This document shows positions 11,657 to 58,934 of a DNA stretch of 64,000 nucleotides, one piece after another. The DNA comes from Schmidtea polychroa (taxonomy: Eukaryota): positions 45,012,001 to 45,076,000 of the forward strand of contig CM097886.1 in the NCBI GenBank assembly GCA_044892525.1, given 5' to 3'. The notes below the pieces were generated by a model. That model searched no databases. It saw only the letters and a list, made by a program, of their open reading frames with translations, and was not told the DNA's origin. The stretch's first letter is position 1. Each line of letters opens with the position of its first letter. Made by a program: the position numbers and the translations under genes.

Positions 11657-11710
11657 ATTAAAAAGGGTTAAGTGATGTAAATAAATGTATATAAAATGTG
11701 GTATATTAGT

Positions 11711-26839: not shown

Positions 26840-27250
26840 TATGAATGTATATGGTTGAATGTATATGTCATCATTGAACACCAATAGTTCGTGGCGACCT
26901 CTGATTATGAAAAACTATAATTTTAGTGAATGTAGGTTCGTAGACCCGTTCTTTTGTGTATGAGAATGATTTTAGGTTGGAAACAAGGCTGGTCAACGTC
27001 GCGAGCTATATACGTCTACGACGACGTTGATCACTCTTGTTCAGCATAAATCATAATGAAATACAAAACAAAAAAAATAAATAAGAGGTTGACTCAATTA
27101 TAATACATTTAATAAAACATGGGGCGATCATAAATAAAATATATACCCATTTTTGCATGTGCAAGTACACGTGTATGTATTGATGCATTAAAACAAACTC
27201 GAATTCCTTTTATTCTATAATTTTCTATTTTTGATATTTTTAATGGCAAT
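26840..27250. repeat. 411-bp direct repeat, copy 1 (copy 2 at 53850-54260)
   Basis: Identical apart from one substitution seen; brackets copy B. Confidence 0.95.
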
Positions 27251-28219
27251 CAAATTTATTAATCGGGATCAAGTGAAAAGAAAAGATCAAATGTAACTTA
27301 AAATTTTAATTATTTAATAAATATACATAGTTATTGTTACTTCAAAAAATTAAGAATAACAAATGAATACAATCTCTTACTGTCACGTTAGGCTGAATCG
27401 AAATATAAGGCTCGTCTTTTCTAAAATAGTCAACTGGTGTCGAAGCTGGTAGTCGGTTTTATGAGGTTCTCGAGTAGTTTCTCTGAATTTATTGAAGGTT
27501 TTCTGGTCCTAGAGTCAGTCCTGTAATGTTTTTTCAAATTAACACTCACGATACTTATGCTAAAATTTCTTTACCTGTAATGTTTTTTCAAATTAACACT
27601 GATTTTTATGATTTTGGCGTTGGTTTATATACTAATTTTTCATTTACGCGGACCAATCAAAATTGAGTACCGCTTATTTTATTAAATTAATTTGTTTTTT
27701 CCTATTTCTTTGGGTATTTTACTTATTTCCCTATTTTTATTATATCTTTTATTTATTTCCTAAATTCCTTATTATTTATTGCGTTTCCGGTATCTTATTC
27801 ATTATGTTATTACTTTATTTTTTTAATTTTTATTTTTTGTTTTAGTTTTTATATCTTATTTATGGTTTATTTTATGTCTTGATTTATTTATTCCTAAAAT
27901 TGGTGGTCTTATTTTATTTTATTCGCCTCTTATCTATCTTATTTTTCGACGATCATTTTTTCCAATTCAGCCCAACAAATCACTCGGGGACCCATCAAAA
28001 TTGCGTCCCGCAATTACATACTTACTTCATTCATTCATAAAAAGAAAAATAAAATAACCACAACATCATATACAATAAATTTATTAGTAAGATAAAGGTC
28101 AAAATAGGACCAAGCAAGTATCACTTATGGTTATAGGTTATATACACAGAAGTTCACACCAGATAATGTTTTACAGTTCACACTAGATAATGTTTTAAAT
28201 CAGTACTTGCATTGTTTTA

Positions 28220-28838
28220 TTACTCTGCTGACTCTGACTGGGGTTGTTGGTACATTTTAGGCTCGATGTTGTAGTAGGCCGGACGACTGGTTGATGGTTT
28301 GGGAGATTCTTGGTTGGTTAATCTGAGTGGACTTGTATTTTGAGTGATGTTAGAAAGTTCGACCGAATTTTTCTGGGTGGCTTTGGATTTCGGTTGTTGG
28401 CATTTTTTCTTGAATTCGAGGATTTCTAAGAAGGTTATTAGACATAATAGGCTTGTTTCGGCGATCACCACATATAGAAGGTAGTGGGTGTCGCTTTGTT
28501 CTGGGGATTTTTCGAGTTTTTCAGGTTCGGAATTTTCCTGTCGTATTTGCACTTCTAGTTGATCCAGGTGATGGATTTGTTCTATCATCACCTTATTTAT
28601 TTTTCTACACAGGAGGTTTCCTTGGCACATTACTCGGATATTGTCGATGTAGGTTCGGGTTGAACGGATGTTGTCTATGATTTTGCTCTTTACCATGGTA
28701 TGGCATCTCGGTTTTCTTTCTTCGGTGATCTCGGAGGCTATCTATTTGGGGGTTACTCTGTGGCTTGCTCATCAGATTGTTAGCCAGTATTATCAAGGTG
28801 ATTGTCACTCCCCACCGCATTATACTGTTATACATCAA
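28220..28838 (-). pseudogene. Cargo ORF 5 of copy B (signal-like N-terminus, coiled coil, TM), frameshifted near 28700
   Basis: MRWGVTITLIILANNL N-terminus and YLLYVVIAETSLLCLITFL TM; positional homolog of 11711-12362. Confidence 0.5.
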
Positions 28839-28874
28839 ACATTTAATTTATTTACAATTGTCGACGTTCTTTTG

Positions 28875-29630
28875 TTAATCGTCTTTCTTTTGGGGATCGT
28901 TTTCGGTGATTCTCATTAGGGTGGTCTCTGCCTTAATGACCCTATATCTCAACTCAGGTAGCATTGCTAACTGTCGGTCTTTTTCACGGGTTTCTCTCCT
29001 TAAATGTCTGATTTCTTTTTTCAAGCGTCTACTTTCCTCCTTTTTCTTTTCAAGGTTTCTTTTTAGTTCAATTTGTAGGAAGTCTTGTTCGTTTTCTTGC
29101 AGGTAATTTTGTTGTTGATGTTCTCTTTCTATCTCTCTATATTTGTGGATCCACTTCCTCATTTCTTTACTTTCCCGTTGGTTTTCTTCCAGTTGTTGTT
29201 TTAATTTATTTATTGCTGTTTGGCGTTCCTTCGCCTCACCTTTCCAATAATCCTCAATTACTTCTTCTGCTTTAAGGCTTGCTCTTTCTTTCCATAATTC
29301 TCCCGCTATCTTTTCCCAGTTTTTTCCTCGCTTCCTTTGTTCCTGAAGCCATTCGTTTTCCTCTTCCGTTTCTCTTTTTATTTTCCCCAACGCTTCACAC
29401 TCTTTCTTTAACACCTTTATCATTTTACGGTCTTCCAGGTATTTGTTTATTAATCTCCCGTTTTCATACTTCTCTTCCCGTAACTCTGTCTTTAGCGTTT
29501 GTGTTTCAGTTGTTTCTGCTTCGATCTCTCCTTCTTCTACGTCGCTCATAATTTCTATTATTTCCTCGATTTTCATATCTATAATATGTACAGTTAATGG
29601 TGCGCTATAGTGCGACTTATACGTATACAT
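28875..29630 (-). CDS. Cargo ORF 4 of copy B
   Basis: N-terminal half nearly identical to 10913..11656. Confidence 0.75.
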   Translation of the reverse strand: MYTYKSHYSAPLTVHIIDMKIEEIIEIMSDVEEGEIEAETTETQTLKTELREEKYENGRLINKYLEDRKMIKVLKKECEALGKIKRETEEENEWLQEQRKRGKNWEKIAGELWKERASLKAEEVIEDYWKGEAKERQTAINKLKQQLEENQRESKEMRKWIHKYREIEREHQQQNYLQENEQDFLQIELKRNLEKKKEESRRLKKEIRHLRRETREKDRQLAMLPELRYRVIKAETTLMRITENDPQKKDD

Positions 29631-29744: not shown

Positions 29745-30800
29745 TTATACGAAGGTTTCCTCCTGGCCTACATAACCTTTATCACTATCAACCGCGGGAT
29801 GTAACTGTATCGCAATAGGGTCGTATGGTAGGTAATATTGGGGAATTTGGGCTATCAACTCATTAATTTCGTCTCTTAGAGCTCGAGTGATGTTCAGCTC
29901 TTCGTCGAGAAGGTAGGTGAGGTACCTTGTCTCTTCGTCTTTCATCTCTATTTGTCTATCTAGGGCCTTGATTTTCTCGTCGCCCTTCCATTTTTCAATT
30001 TCTATTTCCAAGTTTTTGATATTTTCGGTGTACATTTTCCTTTCGTTTTCTAATTTTCTGTTTTTTCCAGCTAGGACCATGTTTCTTTGTTCCAGCGATC
30101 CTTGTAATCCATTAAGGTCTCTTTTCATCTCTTCTACCTGATTTACTAATTCCACAACCCGTCCTGCTTGTTGGGTTATCATCTCTTCCATTGCGGCATT
30201 CTCGTGCTCTCTTATGTCGCATTTTATTGCCAAATGTCGCTCAAACTCCATAGCCTTTGTTTGCCAGGTTTGACTTCGGGCGGCGACCTTTCTCAACCGT
30301 TTCAATTCTTCCTTTATTATTAAATTCTCCTCCCATTTACCTTGTTCGCTTTCATATCCGAGTCTCATGGGCAATTCTTTCATCTCTTTTTTGATTTCAC
30401 TGTTTTGTCTTTTCCATTTTCTCGCTTCTGCCACTAAGTGCATCATTTTCCTTCCTTCTATTTGCTTTTCCGCTTCGCGCTTGGTGTTCTCATCGGTAAG
30501 TCTCTTTCTCGCTTCCTGCACTAGCTGCTTTAAATAGTGGCTGTGCGCTTCTTGGCGGGTATTTTCTAGTGACGCCCATTTTGATGCTCTTTTGCATGCT
30601 TCTGCTTCCGCTCTTAAGTTGTGTATTAACCATTGGTATTGACTATTCTCATCCTCTCTAGCTTCTTCGATGTGATTTCGGATGAGATTAGTTAGTTGGA
30701 ACATTACTTTGTTCCATTTTTTGTTATGTTCTCGGGGAATTTGTGTCTTGTTGACATTGGTTTGGGCTATCGCAGTTTCGGTTAGTTTCTCTTGTGTCAT
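29745..30800 (-). CDS. Cargo ORF 3 of copy B (351 aa)
   Basis: Near-identical to 9727..10782. Confidence 0.8.
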   Translation of the reverse strand: MTQEKLTETAIAQTNVNKTQIPREHNKKWNKVMFQLTNLIRNHIEEAREDENSQYQWLIHNLRAEAEACKRASKWASLENTRQEAHSHYLKQLVQEARKRLTDENTKREAEKQIEGRKMMHLVAEARKWKRQNSEIKKEMKELPMRLGYESEQGKWEENLIIKEELKRLRKVAARSQTWQTKAMEFERHLAIKCDIREHENAAMEEMITQQAGRVVELVNQVEEMKRDLNGLQGSLEQRNMVLAGKNRKLENERKMYTENIKNLEIEIEKWKGDEKIKALDRQIEMKDEETRYLTYLLDEELNITRALRDEINELIAQIPQYYLPYDPIAIQLHPAVDSDKGYVGQEETFV

Positions 30801-31132
30801 CTCTAAATCATAGACATCGATTAATCTTTTTATTATGAAAAAGGAATTTATTCATTATTTACTGTTTCTTTGGAAATTTTCGCATCATTTTTGGGTTTTC
30901 GTATTTAGGGTTTTCATACTTGTTAAATAAAACTAGAAGTCGAATTCAAATTATATTCAAAAATTATAACAATATCGGTTTGACTAAACAAATCATTAAA
31001 TTGACGATTAAGCATTTCTAAATAACAATAATAATTATGTACGCCATAATATAATACGAATATAATACTTTAATATATGTATATGTTAATTTCTTAATAG
31101 TAATAATTCAGATGTAATTTATTATTATAATA

Positions 31133-34100
31133 TTATATTGTGCTAATAATTAAATCTTCCTCACATCCCCCCTGTTTAAAAGGCTTTAGCCATTCTACAT
31201 TTCGAATCATTGTTTTACCTTCTTTATCCATAAGTTCGTAACTTCTATCATGTAGTTTTTTTATCACTCGAAAAGGTCCTCTGTATCTATCATCTTCTTT
31301 TTTTCTTGTGTCTATCTTTACTAAAACGTTGTCATCTATTTTAAATTCTCTATTAATTCTATCTGCGTTTCTGTACTTAACATTTCTTTGCTTTTCTTGT
31401 ATCTCTTCAATGATTCTAATTCGGTCATTAGTAACTTCCTTTTTGTTTTGCCATTCTCTTGTTATTCGAAACCCAAATACTATTTCCGCTGGACTTTTCC
31501 CTAATGTACTTTGTACGGTTGCGTTCAAAGCAAATTCAATTTCTGGTAATACCTCTACCCAATTGCTTTTTAATCTATCTTTAATTGAGGTACTCATGAA
31601 ATCTCTTATTGTTCGAAATTGCCGTTCTATTAATCCATTTGCACTATGATGGTATGGACTTGAAAATTGAAGCATTATGTTATGGGTTTTAGCTAATTCT
31701 TTCATCACACCTGATTCAAATGTCTTCCCACAATCTACTTGAATTATCCTAGGAGAACCGTATTTTAGAATCCAAAATTTCATTATTGTGTCCGCTGTTG
31801 TTTTCTCATCTTGCTTAGAAACAGCTGTAAGAGAAATATATCGAGTGCACATATCAATAATTCCTAAAATATACTTTTTCCCATGTACACTTGTTTTCAA
31901 AGGTCCACAAAAATCTATAGCAATTGTTTCAAACGGTTTCGACACTTCCGTTTTTAGTATAGTTTCCTTTGTTTTAGTTGTTAGTGTTTTTCTTTTTTGA
32001 CATAATTCACAATTTTGAATAATTTCTGTAGTTATCATTTGTAATTCATCCATGTCATAATTTACTTTTATGTAGTCAATCACTTTTTTGCAACCTGCGT
32101 GGCATAGGATTTTATGCATTTCTTTGATAAATTTTTCGCGATTGTTTTTAGGAATCCAAATTTTATTTTCTTTTGTCATGATAACATCATCATCAATCTT
32201 AAATTTAGTTTTTACATTTTTCATGATTAATTCTTTTTGATTTTCTATCTCAACATTACCCTTTTGCCAAATCACACCTTGCTTAACAGCTGTCATTGTT
32301 AAAAGTCTTGTTTTCATTTTTTCTGTTTTAGGATTTTCATGAACTTCCATACATTGAGTACATCGTCCACACTTATCTCGGGATAATGCATCTGCATTGG
32401 TATGTTCCATACCTTTTCTAAATGAAATATCCATATCCAAACTGCTAAGAAAATTTATCCAAGTTTGGAATTGTGCCGTGATTGGCTTTTTTGTTGCCAT
32501 CATGAATGTTATTGCTTTATGGTCCGTTCTTAATTTAAATTTTTTCCCATACAAATAATGTTTAAAATGTTGAGTAAAATAATAAATGGCCAATAACTCC
32601 TTCCTTGTTATACAATAACCTATTTCATGCTTATTCATTGAATGCGAACCATATGCAATTACTCGCTCATGTCCCTGTTCGTCTAACTGTGATAAAACCG
32701 CACCAATTGTGTCAAAACTTGCATCAGTGTCCAAAATAAATTCTTTCTGAAAGTTAGGGTATATTAATACTGGTGTTTTCGATAATGCATTTTTTAATTC
32801 TTCAAATGCTTCTTCACATTTTTCTGACCATATAAGTTTTTCATTAGTCGTACCACATATAGACTCTAATATTCGTGAAAACATTGAATAATTTTTTATA
32901 AATTTTCTATAATAATTACACAACCCCAAAAAACTTCTTAGTTGTTTCAAACATTGAGGTCTTACAAAATTTTTAATTGCTTCAATTTTATTTTCATCCA
33001 CTTTCACACCTTCATTATTAATTATATGGCCTAAAAATTTTGTCTCATTTGTTAAAAATATACATTTTTCTGGATTTACTCGTAATCCCGCTTCCTTAAT
33101 TTTCATTAATACTTCATTTATTCTTTTAAAATGCTCTTCTTTATTTGTAGAAAATATTAATATGTCATCCAAATATACAATAGCTGTATTCCACAGAAGT
33201 TTTCCTAAAACCATATTCATTAGTTTTTGAAATGTAGCCGGTGCCGCAGCAATTCCAAAAGGCATTCTATTAAAACAGTACTGTCCGCTCCTTGTTGAAA
33301 ATGCGGTTTTTTCTTGTGAATTATTTGTTAACTCCACTTGATAATATGCACTTCCAAGATCTATAGTACTAAAAAACTTGGATCCATTGAGTGAATCTAA
33401 CATTTGTTCAATATTAGGCATTGGAAATATTTGTCTTTCTGTTATTTTATTTAGGTTTCTAAAATCCAAACACAATCTGATGTCATTCTTTTCTTTTTTC
33501 CAAACACATACCAATGGAGTATTCCAACTCGAATCACATTTCCTAATAATACCATTTTCTTCCAAATTTTTTATAGCTTCCTCAATTTTTTCTTCTAAAT
33601 GAGCCGGTTGTCGTCTAGGGTTCATGTAAATTGGGCCCTCAGTAGTTTTGATTTCGTGCCATAATAAATCTGTTTTTCCAATGTCCCATTTATCAGCCAT
33701 AAAAACTTCTTTATTTTCATTAATTATCTGATACATTTTATCTCCTTTTTTTAAATCAAATAATTTTATTGCTCGACTAAATCTTTTCTCATCATTATAT
33801 GAGTTGCTAAATCTTGCCTCAATATTACAAATTTCATTAAAATTATTTTCTATTTCCGTATTTTCAGTTATACTATCGTTTATTTTCATTAACTTGATGT
33901 TGAATTGACGAAGTAAATCTATCCCACCAATAATTGACGGTGAAACCTTTTTAACAACAACAAAAATCACATTCTCTTCTTTGTTACCGATTTGAATCTT
34001 CAATTTAACATTGCCAAATGTTTCCAATGGACTGCCATTTGCACACCAAATTCCTTCATTGTGAGGTTTAATATCTATCTCACCTATTTCTTTGATGATC

Positions 34101-34378
34101 GAGCTATCTATTACATTCATTCTAGCCCCCGTATCCAATAGACAATGTTTGAAATAAATCCTATTAATCCCAACTATTACGCTTGGTCTTCCACCCATCT
34201 TATCATATACAATTTCTAAATCGTCATTTAAAACAGAAATATTATTTATATGTTTATCCAATGTTTCGTCATAAACAAACCTTTTACTGCTATTTATTAA
34301 TTTTGCCTCACAAATACTTATTATCTTCTTACAATTCTGATCACATTTATTTTCAATTACATTAATTTTATCACGCAT
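31133..34378 (-). CDS. pol: Pol of the nested Gypsy (PR-RT-RH-IN); ORF runs through the PPT into the 3' LTR
   Basis: LDTGA, YLDD, LDTDAS, HKILCH..CELC, IDFCGP, VDCG, GLIERQFR, RGPF. Confidence 0.95.
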   Translation of the reverse strand: MRDKINVIENKCDQNCKKIISICEAKLINSSKRFVYDETLDKHINNISVLNDDLEIVYDKMGGRPSVIVGINRIYFKHCLLDTGARMNVIDSSIIKEIGEIDIKPHNEGIWCANGSPLETFGNVKLKIQIGNKEENVIFVVVKKVSPSIIGGIDLLRQFNIKLMKINDSITENTEIENNFNEICNIEARFSNSYNDEKRFSRAIKLFDLKKGDKMYQIINENKEVFMADKWDIGKTDLLWHEIKTTEGPIYMNPRRQPAHLEEKIEEAIKNLEENGIIRKCDSSWNTPLVCVWKKEKNDIRLCLDFRNLNKITERQIFPMPNIEQMLDSLNGSKFFSTIDLGSAYYQVELTNNSQEKTAFSTRSGQYCFNRMPFGIAAAPATFQKLMNMVLGKLLWNTAIVYLDDILIFSTNKEEHFKRINEVLMKIKEAGLRVNPEKCIFLTNETKFLGHIINNEGVKVDENKIEAIKNFVRPQCLKQLRSFLGLCNYYRKFIKNYSMFSRILESICGTTNEKLIWSEKCEEAFEELKNALSKTPVLIYPNFQKEFILDTDASFDTIGAVLSQLDEQGHERVIAYGSHSMNKHEIGYCITRKELLAIYYFTQHFKHYLYGKKFKLRTDHKAITFMMATKKPITAQFQTWINFLSSLDMDISFRKGMEHTNADALSRDKCGRCTQCMEVHENPKTEKMKTRLLTMTAVKQGVIWQKGNVEIENQKELIMKNVKTKFKIDDDVIMTKENKIWIPKNNREKFIKEMHKILCHAGCKKVIDYIKVNYDMDELQMITTEIIQNCELCQKRKTLTTKTKETILKTEVSKPFETIAIDFCGPLKTSVHGKKYILGIIDMCTRYISLTAVSKQDEKTTADTIMKFWILKYGSPRIIQVDCGKTFESGVMKELAKTHNIMLQFSSPYHHSANGLIERQFRTIRDFMSTSIKDRLKSNWVEVLPEIEFALNATVQSTLGKSPAEIVFGFRITREWQNKKEVTNDRIRIIEEIQEKQRNVKYRNADRINREFKIDDNVLVKIDTRKKEDDRYRGPFRVIKKLHDRSYELMDKEGKTMIRNVEWLKPFKQGGCEEDLIISTI

Positions 34379-34680
34379 CTAATTACAATCATTAATATCA
34401 GTTTTATCTCTTACGTCATATATAATCTTACTGTTACTCTGATTATCTTCCTTTATTACATCATATTTTTTTAATTTACTTTTCACGTTTTTAATACTAT
34501 CTTCTAAAATTACATCTGATTTAAATCTAATATTTTTTACCTTTAAATTTGATTTAGATATACTGTCTAAATTATTATTACTACTTTTAAAATTATACAT
34601 ACTGTCTAAATTACTATTACTATTATTATTAAAAAATATACTATACTTATCTTGGCGCACACAATCATCATTATTACCTT

Positions 34681-35844
34681 TTAATGCATGGCTCCTATCA
34701 TCTCGCCTAATGATGGAGCCCTCCCATTTGGGTGTCCATCACTTCGGGTAGACTGAGAATCCTCCGCTTCGTTTCCGCGGTCTTCCATAGCTGCCACTCT
34801 TCCATCGGCATATCTGTCTTGATATCGTCTGTTATCCTCGTAATTTCTAGATTGGTTTCTTCCTGATGATCGTGTGTCTGCTGTTCCCCAACATTGAAAC
34901 CGCAAATGACCACGTTTTCCACATCCTGAGCATGAAATCGATGGACATTCTCCCCGGTGATGGCCAGATTCCTTACAAGCGTTGCATCTCAATTCTGAAT
35001 TTATCTTGTTATTTTTACATTCTCTAATCATGTGTCCTTCTTTTCCACATCCATAACACTTCTTTTTTGGGCATTCTCGACTCGAATGTCCTAGTTCTTG
35101 ACAATTCCAACATGTAACAACGCGACTTCCACTTGCTCTGTTGTCTCTATGGTAATACTGTTGATTAGTATTCCTTCCAGAATCGAAGCTTTGAGCGTGC
35201 GGAATAGAATTGAATCTTGGTTCAAAATTTCGTCTTTCTTGAACATTCGAAAAATTGCGTTGTCGATCTTGTATATCGGCAAATCCTTGTCGTTTCTTTA
35301 TTACGTTTGCGAACGTTTCTTTTCTTTGCATAACTGCAATACTAGAAACTTCAATGTTGATAGCATCAACTTTACGAATTACGTCCTTGATCTCTTCGAC
35401 TTTTAAAGCATCTCGCATCTTGATCTCTTTTTGGATTTCTTTGTCTTTGACACAATGTATCAAAAAATAAGCGACTAATTCGTTTTTATCCCACTTGTGT
35501 TTCAATACTTTGTCGACCATTTTCTCAATCTTTTCGAAAAACACTGGCGCTGCATCGTTATCTTTCTCATAATTGTATAAGTTCAGAAAATCGCCTATCA
35601 GTGTTGACGGCTTCTTGAAAGCTTCTCTGAGTCTATCTTCAAAATTAATAAATTTGACATCGACGGCTTCATAAATCGGTAAAATATCTCTTGAAATAAG
35701 GCATTTTATCATCATATTTTGGTTATCTTGATCTAACCCACATAACTGAAAATATCGCTTACATTCTTCAATGAAAGTTTCGATTTCGTGTCTTCCGTCG
35801 TAAACATCCGGAATCATCTTATTCACTATTGCCAGGGTCGCCAT
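34681..35844 (-). CDS. gag: Gag of the nested Gypsy with four CCHC zinc knuckles
   Basis: CWNC..GH..REC, CYGC..GH..REC, CNAC..GH..GEC, CSGC..GH..FQC. Confidence 0.95.
   Translation of the reverse strand: MATLAIVNKMIPDVYDGRHEIETFIEECKRYFQLCGLDQDNQNMMIKCLISRDILPIYEAVDVKFINFEDRLREAFKKPSTLIGDFLNLYNYEKDNDAAPVFFEKIEKMVDKVLKHKWDKNELVAYFLIHCVKDKEIQKEIKMRDALKVEEIKDVIRKVDAINIEVSSIAVMQRKETFANVIKKRQGFADIQDRQRNFSNVQERRNFEPRFNSIPHAQSFDSGRNTNQQYYHRDNRASGSRVVTCWNCQELGHSSRECPKKKCYGCGKEGHMIRECKNNKINSELRCNACKESGHHRGECPSISCSGCGKRGHLRFQCWGTADTRSSGRNQSRNYEDNRRYQDRYADGRVAAMEDRGNEAEDSQSTRSDGHPNGRAPSLGEMIGAMH
34690..34732 (-). promoter_or_regulatory. -1 ribosomal frameshift signal of the nested Gypsy
   Basis: Slippery C CCA AAT in the gag frame (34732-34726), 5-nt spacer, hairpin GGCTCC-ATCAT..ATGAT-A-GGAGCC; the -1 frame is open into 34379..34660. 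Confidence 0.75.
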
Positions 35845-36166
35845 GTTAAATAAAACTAGAAGTCGAATTCAAATTATATTCAAAAATTATAACAATATCG
35901 GTTTGACTAAACAAATCATTAAATTGACGATTAAGCATTTCTAAATAACAATAATAATTATGTACGCCATAATATAATACGAATATAATACTTTAATATA
36001 TGTATATGTTAATTTCTTAATAGTAATAATTCAGATGTAATTTATTATTATAATATTATATTGTGCTAATAATTAAATCTTCCTCACAATACTATTATTA
36101 TATAATATTTTATTGGTTATATACACCGATATATACAGATTATTATATACAACATTATTCGATTGG

Positions 36167-37555
36167 TTACTCCGTTCTACCCTTCTCCTCTTTCCTCACG
36201 GTCATCTTGATATACACCGTGTCATTTCTTGCCATATCTTCTACTTTTTGTTGTAGGATGAACGTAGGTGCTCCTGTTGCTGATCCTTCTTCTTCCGTAG
36301 GTCTCTGGTAACACATTTGGTTTCCAGTTGTCTTGAAGCTTTGTTCGTGGATGCTTCGGTCATTCATTAGTGCAATATCGATTTTTGCCTGGAACGGCCA
36401 CTCTATTATTTCGTCGTATTCCCCTTTACATAACAGAAAGAAAATCGAAAAGTGTGTATCTGATCCGGTTCCGTCCCCGTTGGGATATATCTTCATTTTC
36501 ATTTTGTACCCATTTTTCCAAGAATGGAATGCAGGGCTTGTTATTCTTGTCTCTTCTCCGGTTTTTGCTTTTCGTATTCTTTCTTTTACTCCCGTTATTT
36601 TCCATATGTAGGGTGCTGTTGGGGTTATCTCATTTAGATTTATTTCCCGTATTTTCTGATGTAGCTCCTTGGCCTGATTATTACTGATTTCTATTCGGTT
36701 TATTTGCATCTTTATGTTTGCTCGGGCTTCTTCGAACGCTTCCCTTTCTTCTAGTAGTTCTTTGACTAACGCTTTCAACGATGTTATCTCTATCTCCATT
36801 TTTTTTACTTTCTCTTCGCTTTCTTGTAACGCAGTCGACCACATTTCTGCGTGGGTTGAAACATTTTCTACTAAATGATGTGGTAACTCCCCTCGGTGTA
36901 GTAGTTTCTGACAACCCTATTTACCTAGTACACATGTCATTCTTTTCTTTTCACATTCCCTTAGATGCTGTGCCACCTTTATTATTTCCCCTTGGTTACA
37001 TCCGTTTGGGCATTCCCCACTGAACTCTGCACATACTCTCTCCTCTTGGACATTGTGATGTTTGAGGGTGAGATTTTTCCACGTATCTATTTCTCCACAA
37101 TGTTCACATCTTTCCAATCTCTCTTCACACTGCCTTTGATGCTCTTTTTCTTCGCTTGCTCGAATAGTTTTATGGCACCTTTCACACTGGCCGACTCTGT
37201 GCATACATTCTCCCATATGTTGTACTACCTTCCATATTACTCCTTTCCATTCGCATGGGGCATTTTTGCATCCCAGGTTGGTGTTTAACATGTCTTTCAC
37301 TGCGGCTTTATCCTCGTTAGTGTCTTCTAAACTCGATATTAGTGTCTCTTTACACACCGGGCACCACTGTGGTCTGTTCTTTATTACTTCACTGATACAT
37401 TCTTTACATACTCTGCATCCACATTGAGTTTGGTGAGGTTCCTTTAACAACTTTTCACATATTCCGCACATAACATGTTTGTGTATTCTGATCGTTGTAG
37501 ATTTTCGGACTTGCTCGACAATCTCTCTGAACTCTTCTCTTTGTCGTTTATCCAT
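36167..37555 (-). pseudogene. TRAF: TRAF homolog of copy B, one in-frame nonsense (TGG>TAG at 36917-36919)
   Basis: Near-identical to 8145..9533. Confidence 0.92.
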
Positions 37556-37640: not shown

Positions 37641-38024
37641 TTAGGGTTCGGAAGAGTCGGCTTCGTGTCCGCTCTCCTCTCTATTCATTAGCCATTCCGA
37701 CCAGTCTTCTATTTCCGTCTGTTCTGCTTCCTCCATCATTCTGTCTAGTTCAATTTCCTGTCTACGGCTATATTGGGTTATCCTCTCTATCTCTCTTTGC
37801 ATTTGTTCGATTTTCAACCTCTGGTCTTCAATTATCTTCAAATAACTAAATCCTCTATTCATACTCTCGATTAGGTTTCTGTGCATCGTCAATCCTTGTT
37901 CTTGCAAATTGGACACTAATTGTGCTAATACGGCACATTGTTGCTTCCATAATTCTTCAGTTACTGCATTGGGATTCATTTCGTTATTTCCTTGATCCAT
38001 TCTTAATTTATATACACTTTTCAA
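37641..38024 (-). CDS. Cargo ORF 1 of copy B
   Basis: Near-identical to 7674..8057. Confidence 0.7.
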   Translation of the reverse strand: MKSVYKLRMDQGNNEMNPNAVTEELWKQQCAVLAQLVSNLQEQGLTMHRNLIESMNRGFSYLKIIEDQRLKIEQMQREIERITQYSRRQEIELDRMMEEAEQTEIEDWSEWLMNREESGHEADSSEP

Positions 38025-46069: not shown

Positions 46070-46518
46070 TGTATCAGTCTTTTCCATCCTCCGGCACGAA
46101 TAATATGTGGTTCAATAGTATTCTCTATGATTGAAACGGTCATTTCCACATGATTTGCAAACTGTTTATTTGGTATTTTCCTCGCAGCCAGTCCCATCAA
46201 ATTATACATCAAATACGTGATTACCACTAGATGATGTTCGTCATCATTTGCATTTGTCGTGAGCTGTTCAATCACTCTCTTCGTTTCATCCCAATCCGTT
46301 TTGGTGGTTTTCGTTTTCTCTTTGATTAACTTTGGGATTATCCCCGAAACGATGTGCCATAATTGTCTAGCTTCCGTACTGGCTACTTTCCGTTGCCACA
46401 AACGTCTAAGTTGTGGGTTTGTTATTATTAACATATCTTTGATCAATTCTCGTATCCATTTTTCTCCTCTTTCGATCGTTGGTTGGGCTTCCTTTAGATC
46501 CCATACTATTTTATCCAA
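46070..46518 (-). CDS. Bcl-2-like helical domain (degenerate BH1, recognisable BH2) immediately before the Env signal peptide
   Basis: VIEQL..helix..IENTIEPHIIRAGGWKRL parallels VVEELF..NWGR..LNRHLHTWIQDNGGWDAF. Confidence 0.5.
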
Positions 46519-46779
46519 TTTTTATAATCGGACTTGCCCTTGTTCTTGCTTTAATTGTTCTTTGGTTTTGAACTCAGACTTTTCTCCTTGTTTCTTAGGT
46601 CTTCCTTTTGCCCGTTTTTCCATCATCGTTCCGGCTTCTCTGGTATTTTCGTAATTCGGATTTCTTTCGTTATCCGTTCTGGGTAATGAGCTATCGTTAT
46701 TTCTTAGCCACTCATTCCATTCATCTATTATTTTATCGGTTTGACCTTCTGGTGTTACTTTCGTTGGTTCTCTTTGCTT

Positions 46780-49227: not shown

Positions 49228-49315
49228 TTGGTGGTTTAACTGACTGATTTGCTCCTTGTTTTGGTTGTTTCCCTCTTTTATTCTTATTTCCGTTTCTTCA
49301 TGTTTCTTTTCTATT

Positions 49316-50740
49316 TTATCTTTTATCTTTTTCCAGAATATTTTCTGAATTCTCTGGTTTCCTTTTAAAATCGTGGTTGAATTCTGTTTTCATTTCCGTT
49401 GTTGTTTCTTTTACCTTTTCTGGTTCCGTCATGGGTACTACCCTTGGGTTTTTCCCGTAATTGTAGCAATACTGGCTTTTCAGGTCTTTTACTAACTTCA
49501 TCATATTTATTCGCAATGGTTGTTCTTGGCGTTGTTGGTTGCGTTCTTGTTTTATCCTCTCTTCCTCGGCCTGCAGTCTTTGCCATTCTTGTACATGTTG
49601 ATGTACTTCATAATTGTTGAGATTTTCGGTACTCCTCATCATACGTATATTCTGGGTTTGTTGTGGTGCTGATTCTGGTCTTGGTCTCATCATTTGTTGC
49701 ATCATCTGTTTCATCTGCGAGATTTCCTGCATAACGTTCATTTGGTTTCCTTCGCTAGGGTTACTTTGTCGTTGCGGATTCGCCATATAATTATTATTTC
49801 GCTGTGGTGGTCGTTGTTGTTGACCCCTTTCTCGGCAATCTCTGGAGATGTGACCTGGCTGACCACAGTTAAAACAACCTCGCAATTGGCATACATTTTC
49901 GGTATGTCCACGCCGTCCGCAACGATTACAATTTGAATTTCTATAGCAATCTCTGTCCCAGTGTCCTGATTTACCGCATGTTCGGCACTGCTTGTTATCG
50001 TTCATATTTCGTCAATTATTAAAATTGTTCTCATTATTCAGGTTGTTACGATTACCATTATTCCCATTTGATCGTCCTTGTGGTGGTTTAAAAATTTGAT
50101 GCGCTCCTGGTATGAATTGATTCATTTTTGGTTCCTGGTTGTTATTATCTCCATTATCCGTTTTTACTTTGGCTGTCGCTATCCTCCCATCCTCTTGCAT
50201 GATGTTCATTTGTGCTGGGAGGTGGAGTTCGCACCTCGTAGCCCAATCTATGGCCTCTTCTAACGTTGTACACATCTGACAGCCTACAGATGCTCTTACT
50301 TCTTCTCGGCGTAATCCCTCTATGAAATAACCGATCAAATTTTCTTCTGGTAATTTCCCATTCATTGCTTTCTTTGCCAATCTCCGCAATTCGCTGGCAT
50401 ATAACGTAATGGATTCATTTGCTCTTTGTTTCCTATTTGCTAGTTCGCCGAGTGCTTGATTTATTGGTTTGCTAGCTCCGAAAGTTTTCTTCAGGAATGT
50501 TTTGATATCGTCCCATTTATCTAATTTCGTATTTCTTTCTTTAGCCTCTAAATATACTTCTAATGCGCTATCGCACAAAAACAACGGCATCCTTTTACTA
50601 ACTGCTTCGGATGTCCATCCGCACACATCGATATAAACTTCGAAGTTGGTTATGAACGTTGCTAACTTGTTTGCATTTCCGTTGAACGGTTCTCCTCTGA
50701 ACTTCTCTTTGTACTCGTCGGTTTTTACGACATTCGTCAT
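49316..50740 (-). CDS. gag: Gag of the giant element: capsid-like domain (50012..50740) plus three CCHC knuckles (49316..50005), split by one in-frame TGA
   Basis: EPFNGN..FITNFEVY..GW, ELANRKQRANESI..YASELRRLA, FIEGL; CRTC..GH..RDC, CNRC..GH..NVC, CFNC..GH..RDC; a 7-bp GATAAAA duplication at ~49315-49328 breaks the frame to the next segment. Confidence 0.9.
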
Positions 50741-52116
50741 GATTGGTGTTCTAGATTCGTCTGTTTCTTTTAAATTGTCTAACGATGTGACTAAACTTTG
50801 GGCTGATAATTCCTCGGTTGACGTTGCTAAACTATTAGTGATGTCGGACAGACTTTCTCTGCTTCGAGATCGACTAGGGGTGTATCCGAGATTTTCTTGG
50901 TCAAATATAGGTACTTGATTGGTTCTTCTTGATCCTTGTGATATTCCTCTTTGATGTTTAATAGATCGTCCTCTTTTGAGTTGTTGTAATTCGTCTCCTG
51001 AAAATAATACGTCTCCTGGCTTACTTGAAGATCTAAAATTGGGTTTATCCGTGATTCCTTTCTTACGCTTCTTGGTAATTAGCGGCTACTGAATTGGACG
51101 AGTTCGGTTCTGATTGTGTTTCCTTCGATAAGTATTCTGTATGAATCTGCGACTGTGATTCTGAGGAGATTTACTAGTCCTTGACAGATGGCTGCTAATA
51201 CTATGAGATTGAATATATCGGTGATTCGTTCGAAGTTGGAGATGTCGCTATCTGTATCTTCTTCCGTCCTGGAGTCTTCCGGTTGCTGGGTTTCTCGGTG
51301 CGGGTTCTGAATGGATTTGTTCTTGGTCGATTGTCGATTTTTTCGAATTCCTTTTGTGCAGGTTCTGGATTGGCTTGATTGGCTGACTTGATTTGATATC
51401 TAAAATGAAAAAATGATCTCGTGTTGCATTTGCTTACACGACTTCATCATTCTTTCAACAACATTCGAACACAGACACCTTTTAGGTTTCTGTTTGTGCT
51501 TCCCTTATTTTTTTTTTTTTTTTGCAATTACCTCCGCGGGTTATAATTTTCCATCAGCCCGTATTTTTCGTCGATTTTAAATTATCTATATGGGGTAGTA
51601 ACAATCATCTATAAAGTCGTAATAATTATCTATTCGTTATCAATTATAATATAAATAGGTCGTTGTCGGTCTCTGCTTATTACCCCCCTTCGTTTTCCTA
51701 TTCCTTTTGCGCGGTTGTCGCTGTTTTACTTTTCGTATTTACTATTATCTCACTCGGTTCTACTCTAGAACCAATAAAATATATTTTCCCGCTTCACCCA
51801 AAAAAATATTATTCCGTAGAGTTTCTCTGCTTCACTGGGGTCCCTTTAATTAGTTAGTTACTTTCCTCTTCTACTCGTTATCGTCATTTCACCTATTCTT
51901 TATTTTCCATTATCTTTTAATTCATTTCCTTCTTCCCTTTCCTTTTCCGTTATAATCTTATTATCTTTTCCACGAGCTCGTTTATTTCCTCTCTAAACTC
52001 AAATTTTCGTAATTACCTTCTATTTTTTCTAGCTAGCTTTAATATTCCATTTCACTAGTAATTTAAATATTATCTCATTGTAGCTTAACTGCTATCTCTC
52101 GCTTTTCTAGGCCTTT

Positions 52117-52869: not shown

Positions 52870-53412
52870 TCATTCACCATAATAAACCATATGGGCTTCC
52901 TTTATTTCATATTTGCACAACGTGCATCTTTTTAAGTCTTTTACACATTCCTCACAGTGACTGAGGTGTCCACAAGGCAAGAATAGTACGCGGATAGGAC
53001 GAAGTTTACACGCAAGACAAGTTCGTAGTAGGGTCAGTTTTTCTTGTATTTTTCGCTCGATTGTATCTGATATTGTATTTAATGGATCTTTTATACGTTG
53101 ATAATCAAGATTTAATGTTGGGTGGTTCAATCTCTCTTGATACCACTGATACACGGTTTCAGGGTTTATCTTCCCATCTGGGTGACTTAGTCCTGTGGCT
53201 AATAACATGTGGTTGGGGACGACTGGTGTTTGTCCGATTGCTTGGAGTAGTATGATGTTAATTCTTTCTCTCTTTTGTCTCAGTGTTTTAAGGGAGTCAT
53301 TCTCGAGGTTTATGAAGTTGATTAATTGTTGTATCTGGTCCACGAATTCTGTCATGTCTATTAGAAAAAAAAAATGTTTTAGTAATATATTACTAATTAG
53401 TGGTGGCTTCAT
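52870..53412 (-). CDS. RING-HC E3 ligase-like protein with IAP/MDM2-type C-terminal RING, no BIR (likely start MTEF at 53355)
   Basis: CLAC-x11-CGH-x3-CEEC-x6-CTLC, VLFLPCGH, RING at the extreme C-terminus; lies inside the element, 3' of the PBS. Confidence 0.85.
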   Translation of the reverse strand: MKPPLISNILLKHFFFLIDMTEFVDQIQQLINFINLENDSLKTLRQKRERINIILLQAIGQTPVVPNHMLLATGLSHPDGKINPETVYQWYQERLNHPTLNLDYQRIKDPLNTISDTIERKIQEKLTLLRTCLACKLRPIRVLFLPCGHLSHCEECVKDLKRCTLCKYEIKEAHMVYYGE

Positions 53413-53644: not shown

Positions 53645-53664
53645 AAATCCCGGCTGAGCCCCCA
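53645..53664 (-). other. Primer binding site, tRNA-Pro
   Basis: TGGGGGCTCAGCCGGGATTT, 7 nt after the LTR end; complementary to a tRNA-Pro-type 3' end (AAATCCCGGnnGAGCCC-CCA). Confidence 0.88.
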
Positions 53665-53849
53665 AAAATCATGTTGGGGTTACACCTCGGCTGACTACTC
53701 TACCATATTGTCTGGTCTAAGGGTTGATTGTCCATCTCGAATAAAATGTGCCGCCGCTTTGTCAACCTGGAGTGAAACCCTACATAACTTTCTTCCAGCA
53801 TAGTGCCCGTGAATTACTTCACGTTGGTACTGCACTATGCCGGCGAGTA

Positions 53850-54803
53850 TATGAATGTATATGGTTGAATGTATATGTCATCATTGAACACCAATAGTTC
53901 GTGGCGACCTCTGATTATGAAAAACTATAATTTTAGTGAATGTAGGTTCGTAGACCCGTTCTTTTGTGTATGAGAATGATTTTAGGTTGGAAACAAGGCT
54001 GGTCAACGTCGCGAGCTATATACGTCTACGACGACGTTGATCACTCTTGTTCAGCATAAATCATAATGAAATACAAAACAAAAAAAATAAATAAGAGGTT
54101 GACTCAATTATAATACATTTAATAAAACATGGGGCGATCATAAAAAAAATATATACCCATTTTTGCATGTGCAAGTACACGTGTATGTATTGATGCATTA
54201 AAACAAACTCGAATTCCTTTTATTCTATAATTTTCTATTTTTGATATTTTTAATGGCAATTTTTGTGCCATAATTTTTGTTTTTAAATTTTTATTCTCTA
54301 ATTATTTTTTTGCTAAATTTACCTCCATGATGGATTTGGAACGGTTCCAGAACATTCCATATTGATTTTAATTTTATTTTTATTTTAATGATGTTTTTCC
54401 TAATTTCTCTTTAAGAATTTTTATTTTTATAGCTAATTTACTTTATTTTGATTACTTTTATTGTTTTATATGGCTTTCATGATGCTTATCGCTATTCTTA
54501 TGAAATGTTCTGGGATTTTCTAGAATTTTTCAATGTTTTACCATCTTTCTAAGCTATTCGAGTCTGTTTTTTGTAATTTTGTGTTTCGTTGCTATTTTTG
54601 AGTTAGTTTCTTGCACTACTTGCGTTTGTATTATTTTATTTAATTTCTGTGTTTCTATTTTTTGTTGTTTTTCTCTTAATTAATATTGTTTATTTGGTAT
54701 ATTTTTCTATTTAATTGGACTTATTGCTATTTGCGTGCTATGTACCTACGCACCTTAGTCACAATTTAGAGTTTTGGGTCTAGAAATTATTTCTAGCCCA
54801 ACA
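53850..54803 (-). mobile_element. LTR lineage D, 5' part
   Basis: Starts TGTTGGGCTAG at 54803; followed on + by AAGT, matching the 4 nt before 24296. Confidence 0.8.
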
Positions 54804-55426
54804 AAGTTTATATTTTGCAAAATTTTGACAGAAGTATACTTTATTTCGATTTTTATTTAACTAGTTGAAATGTGATTTTGCTTGAATAATGATGACAACT
54901 AAAATAAACAATAGGGTTTAATATTGTTGGGGTTACACCTCGGCTGACTACTCTACCATATTGTTTGGTCTAAGGGTTGATTGTCCATCTCGAATAAAAT
55001 GTGCCGCCGCTTTGTCAACCTGGAGTGAAACCCTACATAACTTTCTTCCAGCATAGTGCCCGTGAATTACTTCACGTTGGTACTGCACTATGCCGGCGAG
55101 ACGCCAGCAAGCAGGTGAGCTTCTGCCTTAAAACTACTCCTTGCTGAGGCCTCGACTTCCCATTCCTGACTGCCGATAGAAGGGCTTACGTCCATTTCAT
55201 TACACCACCGGTTGCCAGAATTCTACGAGAATAAATCGGGGATTATTCGTTAACTCTCGAAGACGCTATATTCAACTTATTTAATTAAAATCTGACAGTT
55301 TATAAACGGAAGTAAGTAAACGACGAAATTTATTAGTATTCAATATTAATACACAAGGAGTTAATCGTACACATCACGAGTGTTCGTGGAGAAAAAGAAA
55401 TGTCACAATAAATGCGATACGACTTC

Positions 55427-56293
55427 CTAACGGACTTCATGAATCTCATGTTCCCATTCGGTGTCGGCGAGCAACTCGTCCAGATCAAAGAATTCGGAGG
55501 CATTTTCCTCCCATGTCACGCCAGCCGCCGAGATGATGCGCGCTGGGGCCCCTATTGTCAAGTCGATGGACACTCGAGAACTACCACCGCCAGTAGAGTC
55601 TTCTATTGATAGGAGGCTTGGCTTGGTGGACGCACGCTCACGCTGCCTCCGCTTTCGTTCCGCACGCGATAATTGTTTGCGCTTGGGTTTGCTCGTAGTT
55701 GTGGTGGTTTGAAGCGCAGTGGGTATAGAGATGTTAGCAGCTGAAGTCTTGCTAGTACCCGGGAGGACAACGTCCGGTCGCCCAGGTGAAAGTTCGGTTT
55801 CCACGCAGTCTCGACACGGTCTCTTGAACGGCGGAGATGGATCCGAGGAAGGGTTGTGATGAGGCGGAAAGATGTTATCGGCCTCTTCGATAGGAATCTG
55901 CACTATTTTCCGGGTTGTAGCCGCCTGCACGTAGACTTTGTGCAGTGCCTCTGACTGTTCTTTGATGAGACTTCTTTGGGCACGGCTCTCAGATATTAGC
56001 GCGTCCCGGCAATGCTCGCTACGATCGAGCTTCTTTTGGATCTCTTTCATCCGAGCGGGACTAAACCATGTCCCTTCTAGCTCATCTATCTTCTTTTTGT
56101 AACGTCCAATCTGGGTTTGCAGATCTTTGATGATGGCGTTTTTATCCGCACAAGAGAAGCACGGACGTAACGCAGGTTTGGTAGTTGGTATCATGCTCGC
56201 TATAAAGAATGAGGTTAAGACGTAATCTGTACATGGTTGAAGAAAATACGTGGAATACGAATAATCGACTGCCCGTGGATATTCAGCCATCAA
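55427..56293 (-). CDS. LTR-encoded protein (CxxC, coiled coil, basic NLS-like stretch, acidic/aromatic C-terminus); likely start MIPT at 56194
   Basis: 288-codon ORF inside the LTR; homolog in LTR-D; acceptor CTTAAC..TTCTTTATAG just upstream of that ATG. Confidence 0.65.
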   Translation of the reverse strand: MMAEYPRAVDYSYSTYFLQPCTDYVLTSFFIASMIPTTKPALRPCFSCADKNAIIKDLQTQIGRYKKKIDELEGTWFSPARMKEIQKKLDRSEHCRDALISESRAQRSLIKEQSEALHKVYVQAATTRKIVQIPIEEADNIFPPHHNPSSDPSPPFKRPCRDCVETELSPGRPDVVLPGTSKTSAANISIPTALQTTTTTSKPKRKQLSRAERKRRQRERASTKPSLLSIEDSTGGGSSRVSIDLTIGAPARIISAAGVTWEENASEFFDLDELLADTEWEHEIHEVR

Positions 56294-57889
56294 ACAACAA
56301 TGAATGTCCTTACTCGTCGATTTTGATTATGTACAAAATTACTTAATTCCCTTAAATGATACCAGTTTGACGGATAAAATTCTTTACCTAACTGAACTAT
56401 GCTGATTTGACGAATGCAATTCGATTAATACAGGTTCAGGGATACCTTTACTAATCCTAAAATTTCTCCTACCAATCGGAATTCCATTTATGATCAAAAA
56501 TTGCGCGACCTCGACGCTAACGACCTTCCCAACGCTCTTGCCCCCTTCACCCACTCATATGATATTATAGGTGGTGGTTTGAGGATCGATGATATTTAGT
56601 AAAATATTAGAATAATAATAATAATAATATAATGATGTTTAATGAAAACTTTGATACATTATTTATCGTGCTTTGTTGAAGATTCTTACGATTATTTAAA
56701 TGGGCTACTGAACGAAATTGTTAGTATTATCTGTAAGCCTAATTTAAATCATGCTAATTTTCTAAAACATAAATAATTTATAACTAATTTAAGAGTGCGA
56801 TTTGTGATCGTAATCAGGATTATAATTATCTGGTGATTATTCCATAATTAGTCTAGACCAAATCTTTATCCAGTAGTATGTGGGAAGCGATAGCTTGAAT
56901 ACAATAGTCTCAGACCAGTTGCTATCTAACATGTTTCTCCGTCATTATCTCGCAGAGAGGAAAAATTACTATCAGTATGACATATGGCCAAGTTTGTTGC
57001 TGATGATATTTATGCGAATGTTCTCCATGTCAGTGTGTGGTGTCATGCATTATGTGAACTCTCGTATGTTTGCCGTATCAATGTGAATTTGCGTGTGGTT
57101 GTTTATTACTTGAAATGAATTTTGGATTTTATCGCACTTGCTGCTAATTCCATCAACATCCCGCTACTCATATGTTATCCGATACTCATTGTGCGGTGGA
57201 TTATGTAGATTTCCTCATGCTACTGCTGATGTTTCTCAATATGAAGTTAAACTCAAAATTGAACTTTTAGTGGAATTCCTGACGATCAATAAGAAGGTAA
57301 TGAAGAAAACTACATTCGACCCCTCTCGGTACTACACTGAAAATTTGGATTTTACTCATTGGATTCGTGAATTTCGCAACTATGCCTTAGACATTGCCTG
57401 TTCGATCTCTGGGGAAGGTATGGCATTGAACTAGTTTTTTCTTTGTATAAAATAAATTTTGTTGAATTGAATTTAGAGATATTTCGTAATTCTGTAAATA
57501 TTTTTGGGAATTAATTAATTGTTGGGATTCGCTACCATATGTACTCTCGACCGATTTATCAAAATTAATTATGGGTGAAAAAATACGATAGACTACATTC
57601 ATGGAGTTCTGGCAGCTGAAAGTCACAGGATCTAATTTTCGTAAAATTATGCATTCAGGTGATGTAGGTTATGAAATGACACCAATTTTTAGACGAATTT
57701 ACTGACTAATTATATGACAATTTTCTGACAACTAAGATGTGATAAAGTTCAAGAAAACGAACCGATGAGCTAATAGCGTGACCCCCTCAATCACCGTGCG
57801 AATTGTCAAAAATGCATCCATTTATACATCTGTCTTTTCAATCACTGCCTAACTACGGTTTTCCTAGAGCAATCTTTTCATAGAATTTA

Positions 57890-58020
57890 GTCGCACCTTC
57901 AGCGATTGGACCCGTGAAGAAGCCTTCACATTTCGGCCCAATCTAGCTGCGTGATTGAAATACTCCATGTCCACCGGCTGAGCTCCCGAAGGCACCTCAT
58001 ACCATGACATGGAGTATCTC
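57890..58020 (-). ncRNA. Conserved structured RNA element, solo-LTR copy
   Basis: Perfect 12-bp stem ATACTCCATGTC/GACATGGAGTAT, CC-UUCG-GG loop, second hairpin GATTGGGCC..GTGAAG-GCTT-CTTCAC..GGTCCAATC. Confidence 0.6.
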
Positions 58021-58934
58021 AACTCCACGTTACTCGTTACTTTGAACAGCATAAAAATATACTTCATAAAAATAATCATAAGAATTGCCAAATCATATCG
58101 AATTAATGACTTTAGATTTTTAAACCAGTTAATTTATCAAATTTATTAATCGGGATCAAGTGAAAAGAAAAGATCAAATGTAACTTAAAATTTTAATTAT
58201 TTAATAAATATACATAGTTATTGTTACTTCAAAAAATTAAGAATAACAAATGAATACAATCTCTTACTGTCACGTTAGGCTGAATCGAAATATAAGGCTC
58301 GTCTTTTCTAAAATAGTCAACTGGTGTCGAAGCTGGTAGTCGGTTTTATGAGGTTCTCGAGTAGTTTCTCTGAATTTATTGAAGGTTTTCTGGTCCTAGA
58401 GTCAGTCCTGTAATGTTTTTAGAAATTAACACTCACGATACTTATGCTAAAATTTCTTTACCTGTAATGTTTTTTCAAATTAACACTGATTTTTATGATT
58501 TTGGCGTTGGTTTATATACTAATTTTTCATTTACGCGGACCAATCAAAATTGAGTACCGCTTATTTTATTAAATTAATTTGTTTTTTCCTATTTCTTTGG
58601 GTATTTTACTTATTTCCCTATTTTTATTATATCTTTTATTTATTTCCTAAATTCCTTATTATTTATTGCGTTTTCCGGTATCTTATTCATTATGTTATTA
58701 CTTTATTTTTTTAATTTTTTAATTTTTATTTTTTGTTTTAGTTTTTATATCTTATTTATGGTTTATTTTATGTCTTGATTTATTTATTCCTAAAATTGGT
58801 GGTCTTATTTTATTTTATTCGCCTCTTATCTATCTTATTTTTCGACGATCATTTTTTCCAATTCAGCCCAACAATATTATAATTAATTTTCATAATGATG
58901 AATAGTCGCCGAGTCCGTCTGCAATTCTCCCATA

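Follow-up and report, generated by a model that had tools for sequence, protein, structure and literature searches.

A rearranged copy of a young Burro-type Ty3/gypsy element in Schmidtea polychroa and the possible role of its selected cargo

Introduction

What use does a retrotransposon of about 30 kb have for relatives of cell-death and ubiquitin regulators? This question is raised by a stretch of 64,000 nucleotides in the genome of the planarian Schmidtea polychroa (assembly GCA_044892525.1, contig CM097886.1, positions 45,012,001 to 45,076,000; "the window", whose own numbering is used below). A preliminary description had seen in it one enveloped Gypsy element equipped to manipulate apoptosis or NF-kB signalling. 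Self-comparison and reading-frame lists of the window identified two copies of one element family, copy A and copy B, with domains assigned by Pfam. In our overall reading, which we regard as probable, copy B is dead and rearranged and belongs to a young Burro-type Ty3/gypsy family of ~30 kb and high copy number, sister to a Burro1-like element, and the selected cargo of this family likely acts on host ubiquitin and stress/death signalling, keeping the producing cell alive and permissive.

The novelty of the cargo set, which the preliminary description could not judge, falls away, as the kind of element, its cargo and the apoptosis/ubiquitin hypothesis have already been published for Burro (PMC6431247). 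Burro elements were proposed to meddle with apoptosis and ubiquitination (PMC6431247, Arkhipova and Yushenova 2019), and this host manipulation has been called worthy of experimental confirmation. No test of it was found in the literature searched.

A young, high-copy family of Burro type

The family is young, high-copy and recently active. Genome searches with the DNA of two cargo genes gave 95–100% identity for the TRAF open reading frame (ORF; 40 of 40 scored matches) and 84–100% for the RING ORF (40 of 40). A protein search with TRAF gave 86–100% for 150 of 150 scored matches, about 133 of which, judged by eye, have an open frame of 478–483 codons. These counts are lower bounds (at least 40, at least 40 and at least 150). 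The presence of the cargo in other full-length copies, which the preliminary description had proposed as a check, was followed in 12 single elements and one tandem pair, chosen as top matches with both RING and TRAF; gene order and cargo are colinear in all 14 of these units. The single copies measure ~29.8–30.5 kb, and a natural copy with the same type of long terminal repeat (LTR) as copy B is 29,822 bp long, close to the ~29.7 kb first reconstructed. LTRs are 3.95–4.2 kb long and 99.4–100% identical within pairs, and 4-bp target duplications occur at other copies too. ORF1 runs without a stop over 4,730–4,732 codons in 8 of the 14 units, and TRAF is open in 13. At least two LTR types exist that are ~70% alike, while the internal regions common to them are 93–98% alike.

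These elements have the features of Ty3/gypsy LTR retrotransposons, namely a protease–reverse transcriptase (RT)–RNase H–integrase order, TG...CA LTRs, a tRNA primer site and a short target duplication. They also have those of Burro: a length of ~30 kb with multi-kb LTRs, a giant ORF1 with env between gag and protease, and Ubi/SUMO-like, BCL2-like, ankyrin and TRAF/MATH cargo. The suspected tie to Burro is borne out by an RT tree, where the family is sister (support 100/100, RT 88% identical) to a second family in this genome. This sister family has at least 150 BIR matches, a MATH domain inside ORF1, a BIR ORF, 5.2-kb LTRs and a length of ~35.9 kb, and it shows the published hallmarks of Burro1/GYPSM1. 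Its downstream TRAF (487 codons) is homologous to that of the window family and 30% identical.

Further observations concern both families. The sister family has MATH twice (in ORF1 and again in the separate TRAF), the BIR ORF, an upstream RING and three further orphan ORFs, and it carries its own small LTR-borne ORF with no detectable relation to the one in the window family. The tandem pair shares a middle LTR, with a period of 26,284 bp and 100% identical LTRs. Decayed TRAF copies, 45–73% identical to the family TRAF, point to older waves or further families.

Cargo inside and outside ORF1

Along copy B, Pfam places a RING first, then gag and its CCHC knuckles, followed by a weak ubiquitin-like match, PF24664, protease, RT, RNase H, integrase zinc finger, ankyrin, TRAF RING and MATH (Table 1). 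The TRAF ORF has all the parts of a TRAF, that is, RING, zinc fingers, coiled coil and MATH, with Pfam matches to RING and MATH at E 4e-27. Its MATH domain is closest to TRAF1/2/3 (E 3e-27), TRAF6 being far weaker, and its RING has a Cys at a position that is usually His. The complete TRAF first described stands for the family, but in copy B it has an in-frame stop at 36917–36919; in copy A it is open for 462 aa from Met. A protein database search with the MATH region returned nothing at E <= 1e-10.

The upstream RING matches Pfam at E 6e-11 and, in the PDB, best cIAP2, cIAP1 and XIAP (E 9e-10). No BIR domain was found in this ORF by Pfam or PDB searches; the IAP-type RING is upheld, but the ORF is not an IAP. 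The three ubiquitin-like domains fared unequally. In structural models, the third is firm, with a ubiquitin fold (VIA Z 9.8, root-mean-square deviation 1.8 A over 73 residues), its Pfam score lying below the cut-off; for the other two, the models (pLDDT ~50 or less) give no more than a beta-beta-alpha-beta pattern, and these domains remain weak. A conserved segment of ~110 aa between protease and RT, at the position of the published dUTPase-like segment, has no Pfam or PDB match, and sequence profiles of the ubiquitin-like and dUTPase-like regions found no PDB match either.

The Bcl-2-like domain is weakly but specifically indicated. A profile of six sequences from three families matches Bcl-xL (E 0.008), and all 60 listed matches are Bcl-xL or Bcl-2. 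The region has no Pfam match in the window, no match in a representative search and no usable match in an atlas search; its single-sequence model is poor (pLDDT 44), with Bcl-2 proteins at ranks 3–6 (E ~0.7–0.9). The earlier assignment is kept in part, through the profile and a retained BH2-like motif.

The fusion glycoprotein is confirmed, and the fusion of ankyrin repeats to integrase holds in copy A, where both share one frame. An IkB-type assignment is not supported: the two short clusters appear generic, and there is no IkB among 48 PDB matches at E <= 1e-6. The end of ORF1 likely forms a second small membrane protein. The orphan ORFs reported earlier are also present.

Purifying selection on the cargo

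Selection was estimated by the pairwise Nei–Gojobori method, as dN/dS or pN/pS (nonsynonymous to synonymous ratios), between natural copies; pairs are not independent, yet the most distant single pairs agree. For the core genes, dN/dS is 0.05 in RT, 0.06 in gag and 0.03 in env, which is intact in the family and strongly constrained. Cargo genes have similar values: 0.06–0.10 for the ubiquitin-like domains, 0.10 for the Bcl-2-like domain, 0.12 for the upstream RING, 0.06 and 0.13 for TRAF, and 0.09–0.10 for the orphans of 119, 351 and 251 aa. The identity-filtered pN/pS of the ankyrin repeats is 0.14 (an unfiltered 0.49 mixed the two clusters), and the ORF1 tail stands at 0.18. For the LTR-borne ORF, whose mean dS, like that of the last ORF, was saturated in the first computation, pN/pS is 0.23 over 28 LTRs. 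Because these ratios, mostly 0.03–0.14, are low between natural copies, the cargo is under purifying selection and not neutral baggage, which was the outcome of a comparison that the preliminary description had also suggested.

Signals for expression

Both the 3,949-bp LTR and the primer-binding site of the preliminary description were found as described, the latter with a 20-base match to tRNA-Pro(TGG). A promoter-like block within the LTR, conserved across LTR types, may mark the transcription start region. Of 6 aligned LTR rows, one of them wrongly cut, 5 retain ATTGG and TATA, and an AG|GTAAAG donor-like site ~25 bp beyond the block is found in 3 of those 5. Since the block lies ~330–390 bp into the LTR, the LTR-borne ORF would lie behind the start site. 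This ORF matches no known family and gave no usable match in an atlas search.

For the window family, 4 of 7 accessory ORFs have a pyrimidine-AG no more than 3 bases from their first or second Met; for the sister family it is 6 of the 7 shown (10 of 14 together), against a background of 55/502 and 57/523 ATGs (11%). Two of the ORFs counted as misses have AAG or an acceptor 9 bases upstream. The acceptor-like sites in front of most accessory ORFs suggest spliced or trans-spliced messages. Contigs of public runs, guessed to be RNA, cover the element and have no splice joints; such contigs cannot show transcription.

Other observations on these regions include tRNA-Pro(TGG) genes repeated every 475 bp in a long tandem array (C1 near 130.9 Mb), 1,580 exact matches genome-wide to the 20-base primer-site pattern, and a 73–74-bp unit repeated in tandem in the leader that separates RING from gag (52115–52330), the copy number of which differs among elements. 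An old LTR fragment of a related family at 21560–22020 retains the ATTGG–TATA–initiator block.

Proposed role of the cargo

The observed structure, copy number, recent activity, domain identities and purifying selection on the cargo frame the following proposal. Transcription would start ~385 bp into the LTR, and one polyprotein of 4,600 aa would be made, comprising Gag, ubiquitin-like, Bcl-2-like, Env, protease, RT, RNase H, integrase, ankyrin and small membrane protein parts. It would be cut by the element protease and by signal peptidase. Spliced or trans-spliced RNAs, joined at the acceptor that precedes the respective start codon, would give rise to the small ORF products. On host TRAF/TAK1/TBK1 and caspase pathways, the TRAF and IAP-type RING proteins may serve as ubiquitin ligases or as decoy adaptors, presumably not via a classical NF-kB/IkB switch, and the Bcl-2-like domain may reach a membrane via the hydrophobic segment in front of Env.

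The NF-kB wording of the preliminary description is not sustained, with generic ankyrins and, as reported in PMC13563047, no clear NF-kB homolog in S. mediterranea, together with a working TBK1 response that includes TRAF induction. A TAK1/p38 module (PMC7958881) and two host TRAFs tied to cell survival (PMC7586133) have also been described. The TBK1, TAK1/p38 and host TRAF survival pathways would be likelier targets of the cargo than NF-kB.

Several points weigh against this reading. Expression of the elements and the function of their cargo are predicted here from sequence, and purifying selection means use to the element but is silent on which use. Requiring both RING and TRAF in the sample means that 14 of 14 overstates uniformity, and the acceptor count took two Mets per ORF and a coding-rich background, with homologous ORFs that are not independent. 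The Bcl-2-like domain is without the BH1 NWGR motif and its model is too poor to fix the fold, the segment before Env is below the hydrophobicity cut-off, and the last ORF, the 219-aa membrane ORF, is weakly constrained (0.33–0.44). Lastly, in PMC8532177, where BURRO1 RNA rises on PIWI knockdown, RNA interference (RNAi) against BURRO1 left the smedwi-2(RNAi) phenotype unimproved.

The alternative that survives best, unlikely as we judge it, gives the cargo a part in the life cycle of the element itself (particle assembly, membrane traffic, protein turnover or ankyrin-guided integration targeting) and none in host survival or immunity. Purifying selection is just as compatible with this, and the position of the ubiquitin-like, Bcl-2-like and ankyrin modules inside the Gag-Env-Pol polyprotein also speaks for it, with generic ankyrins placed after integrase and the BH1 motif of the Bcl-2-like domain lost. 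Against it, TRAF and the IAP-type RING belong to signalling-type families and have ORFs of their own, and a BIR protein is added in the sister family. Assembly alone would hardly account for the capture of several death and ubiquitin regulators together.

Action on host ubiquitin and stress/death signalling remains the preferred reading. A bolder form of it is speculative, and we would doubt it as a whole: Burro-type elements might be complex, still-spreading invertebrate retroviruses with a spliced accessory programme, comprising an LTR-encoded protein at both RNA ends, an IAP ligase that lacks BIR and a complete TRAF whose open copies, more than 130, would outnumber host TRAFs, retuning stress/death signalling in planarian stem or gut cells. 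The data yield a short list of constrained, separately encoded ORFs that can each be assayed individually, namely TRAF, RING, the LTR ORF and three orphans.

Layout of the locus

Copy B is a dead, rearranged member of a living family. Its ORF1 is split into at least seven stop-free pieces, and ~1.07 kb including the integrase core, plus a further 0.18 kb, are missing relative to copy A. The downstream part recurs in copy A at 89–97% identity, in agreement with the first account. That account's single unit from primer-binding site to LTR has to be given up: the 3,949-bp LTR is a solo LTR, because ATAT flanks both its sides, and 1.08 kb of unrelated repeats lie between. The internal region is bounded by a 176-bp LTR tail and a ~730-bp LTR head, with a 411-bp duplication outside, in which the last 411 bp of the flanking repeat DNA (53850–54260) recur after the LTR head (26840–27250). 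The junctions have 2-bp microhomology and a 2–3-bp insert. This layout may reflect excision via LTR–LTR recombination with local re-insertion, or a template switch.

It could also be an assembly error and not a real rearrangement, given that the region is highly repetitive and that junction 53848 is bridged by no listed contig of four public runs, which may come from other individuals and whose contigs show presence only. This is improbable in view of the clean target duplication around the solo LTR, the microhomology and inserts at the junctions, and LTR pieces that are slightly unlike the solo LTR, as expected for two LTRs of one insertion.

A mosaic make-up is seen in copy B as well. In the LTR, the RING and the last ORFs it agrees at 94–99.7% with one subtype, while positions 50,800–48,600 are 99.6–100% identical to the 5' part of the neighbouring copy A, likely through gene conversion between the two. 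In this 2.2-kb tract, copy B and the inverted copy A share the same gag break despite different LTR types. A nested Ty3/gypsy element, very young and with gag and pol open, sits between TRAF and the next ORF. It is an ordinary element outside the cargo, its RT being 38% identical to that of the Burro-type family here and on a separate branch of the RT tree.

Table 1. Features of the window (positions in the 64,000-nt stretch; aa, amino acids)
Feature	Positions	Strand	Description
Copy A	1..13700 (~13,700 end)	+	3' half of second family copy; other LTR type; orientation opposite to copy B
Copy B	27249..58873	-	Element under study
LTR head	27249..27977	-	Initial ~730 bp of LTR; 98.5% identical to solo LTR (2 mismatches, 2 gaps)
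Orphan membrane ORF	28220..28830	-	One membrane segment; 219 aa in other subtype, frame shortened in copy B
Orphan coiled-coil-like ORF	28875..29630	-	233–251 aa
Orphan coiled-coil-like ORF	29745..30800	-	351 aa; sister-family homolog 33%
Nested Ty3/gypsy	30921..36088	-	5,168 bp; identical 245-bp LTRs; 5-bp duplication AGTAT; gag 395 aa, pol 1,081 aa
TRAF ORF	36167..37555	-	RING, zinc fingers, coiled coil, TRAF1/2/3-type MATH; one stop in copy B
Orphan ORF	37641..38000	-	119 aa; sister-family homolog 29%
ORF1 end	38161..39200	-	Hydrophobic signal-like segment, Cys-containing stretch, membrane segment
Ankyrin repeats	39075..41150	-	Two clusters at end of pol; Pfam E 4e-20
pol	41150..44110	-	Protease, RT, RNase H, integrase zinc finger; integrase core deleted in copy B
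Fusion glycoprotein (env)	44130..45950	-	Class III, PF24664 E 2e-70; C-terminal membrane segment; in frame between gag and protease in ORF1
Bcl-2-like domain	46070..46521	-	Divergent; BH2-like IEPHI...GGW retained, BH1 NWGR motif absent
Ubiquitin-like domain region of ORF1	46780..49389	-	Three candidate domains, third at ~47080–47290
gag	49316..51085	-	Retrotrans_gag, three CCHC knuckles; ORF1 start; broken by stop in copy B
Upstream RING ORF	52870..53355	-	161 aa; C-terminal cIAP/XIAP-type RING
Primer-binding site	53645..53664	-	20-base match to 3' end of this genome's tRNA-Pro(TGG), 7 bp behind LTR end
LTR tail	53672..53847	-	Terminal 176 bp of LTR, with 1 mismatch against solo LTR
Flanking DNA	53848..54924	.	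~1.08 kb unrelated dispersed repeats
Solo LTR	54925..58873	-	3,949 bp; TGTTGGG...CCCAACA; 4-bp target duplication ATAT on both sides
LTR-borne ORF	55427..56326	-	255 aa from Met at 56194; ~249 aa in other LTR type
Promoter-like block	58485..58545	-	ATTGG, TATATAA, initiator-like TCAGT; ~330–390 bp into LTR

Host TRAF genes and the origin of the cargo

A zf-TRAF search of the genome gave 87 matches, many of them clustered. Of 20 loci fetched, 4 are element-type, and the other 16 are at most ~32% identical, many lying in chromosomal clusters. The MATH tree is mostly unresolved and names no host donor for the element TRAF. The capture of TRAF appears to be old, and the host TRAF expansion, reported in PMC6109357, seems largely separate from the elements. 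Element cargo as the main source of this expansion was considered and rejected, as 16 of the 20 fetched loci are not element-type.

A very improbable reading, as to neutrality largely refuted, takes the cargo for host DNA captured passively, or for domesticated host genes, and the reported expansion for nothing but these elements. In its favour, element TRAFs number in the hundreds, 4 of 20 fetched loci are element-type, and TRAF, ankyrin and E3 domains abound in piRNA-degraded planarian mRNAs (PMC6824462). Against it, low dN/dS rules out neutral passengers, the cargo travels with young LTR pairs, the remaining loci are the divergent, often clustered ones, and neither the window nor 80 loci contain a match, at up to 4 mismatches, to three published Smed-TRAF primers.

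Host TRAF-like genes other than the element TRAF form clusters on C1 (68–77 Mb and 258–268 Mb) and C2 (1–4 Mb), and seven near-identical strong Bcl-2 matches lie within 0.9 Mb on C4 (89.9–90.8 Mb). More generally, planarian gene counts and RNA-seq for TRAF, IAP, Bcl-2 and ankyrin families can be inflated by element copies.

Comparison with Burro and other known systems

Burro1/GYPSM1 exceeds 30 kb and has a 4,873-aa ORF1 and a Gag with three knuckles; its cargo comprises MATH_TRAF, Ubi/SUMO, BCL2-like, dUTPase-like, BIR and ankyrin domains, with an in-frame env like mononegavirus fusion proteins (PMC6431247). The window family resembles Burro (PMC6431247) in its ~30 kb, long LTRs, single ORF1 of 4,600–5,100 aa and Gag with three CCHC knuckles, as well as in its Ubi/SUMO-like, BCL2-like, ankyrin, TRAF/MATH and RING cargo and in-frame env. 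Unlike Burro1, it has no MATH inside ORF1 and no BIR ORF, and its LTR is shorter (4.0–4.2 kb versus 5.2 kb in the Burro1-like family of this genome). Downstream of pol, the four-part TRAF has an ORF of its own, a feature that the Burro1-like family here has too. Relatives include Burro-2, -3 and -4 in Schmidtea mediterranea and a Burro-like element in Dugesia tigrina (PMC6431247); the window family may equal Burro-2, -3 or -4, or be their counterpart in a related species.

Searches of the literature on Burro names, cargo and splice acceptors found PMC6431247 as the only description of the cargo, and its text on Burro mentions no LTR ORF, acceptor sites or selection; Burro is also mentioned in PMC11410931. 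The present additions are modest, namely the selection data, the LTR-borne ORF and the acceptor-like sites; neither these nor the stand-alone TRAF and the BIR-less RING were found in the literature searched (Grohme 2018 lay outside it).

Another relevant group are the planarian errantiviruses. Smed_errantivirus_5, a GAG-ENV-POL errantivirus of the HSV/gB type, has the same gene order and is the closest of six S. mediterranea env rows in PMC13524379. In the part of env compared by eye, 83 of 158 residues are identical to the window family, which is therefore not the same family; for the BIR-bearing sister family and Smed_errantivirus_6, the count by eye is 114 of 158. The main text of PMC13524379 gave no match for Bcl, TRAF, ankyrin or Burro. 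A compact relative in this genome has a gag-Ubl-Bcl-2-like-env-pol frame of 3,053 codons with an RT 51% identical, and its env resembles Smed_errantivirus_3.

Accessory genes are familiar from other viruses, such as sag of mouse mammary tumour virus, nef of human immunodeficiency virus, bel/bet of foamy viruses, IAP of baculoviruses and the Bcl-2-fold signalling inhibitors of poxviruses. The window family differs from complex retroviruses and large DNA viruses in having a Ty3/gypsy pol and a cargo partly fused into the polyprotein, and its LTR ORF lies behind the predicted start site and not in U3. What it has in common with them is accessory ORFs beside or within the LTR and a set of captured death and signalling regulators.

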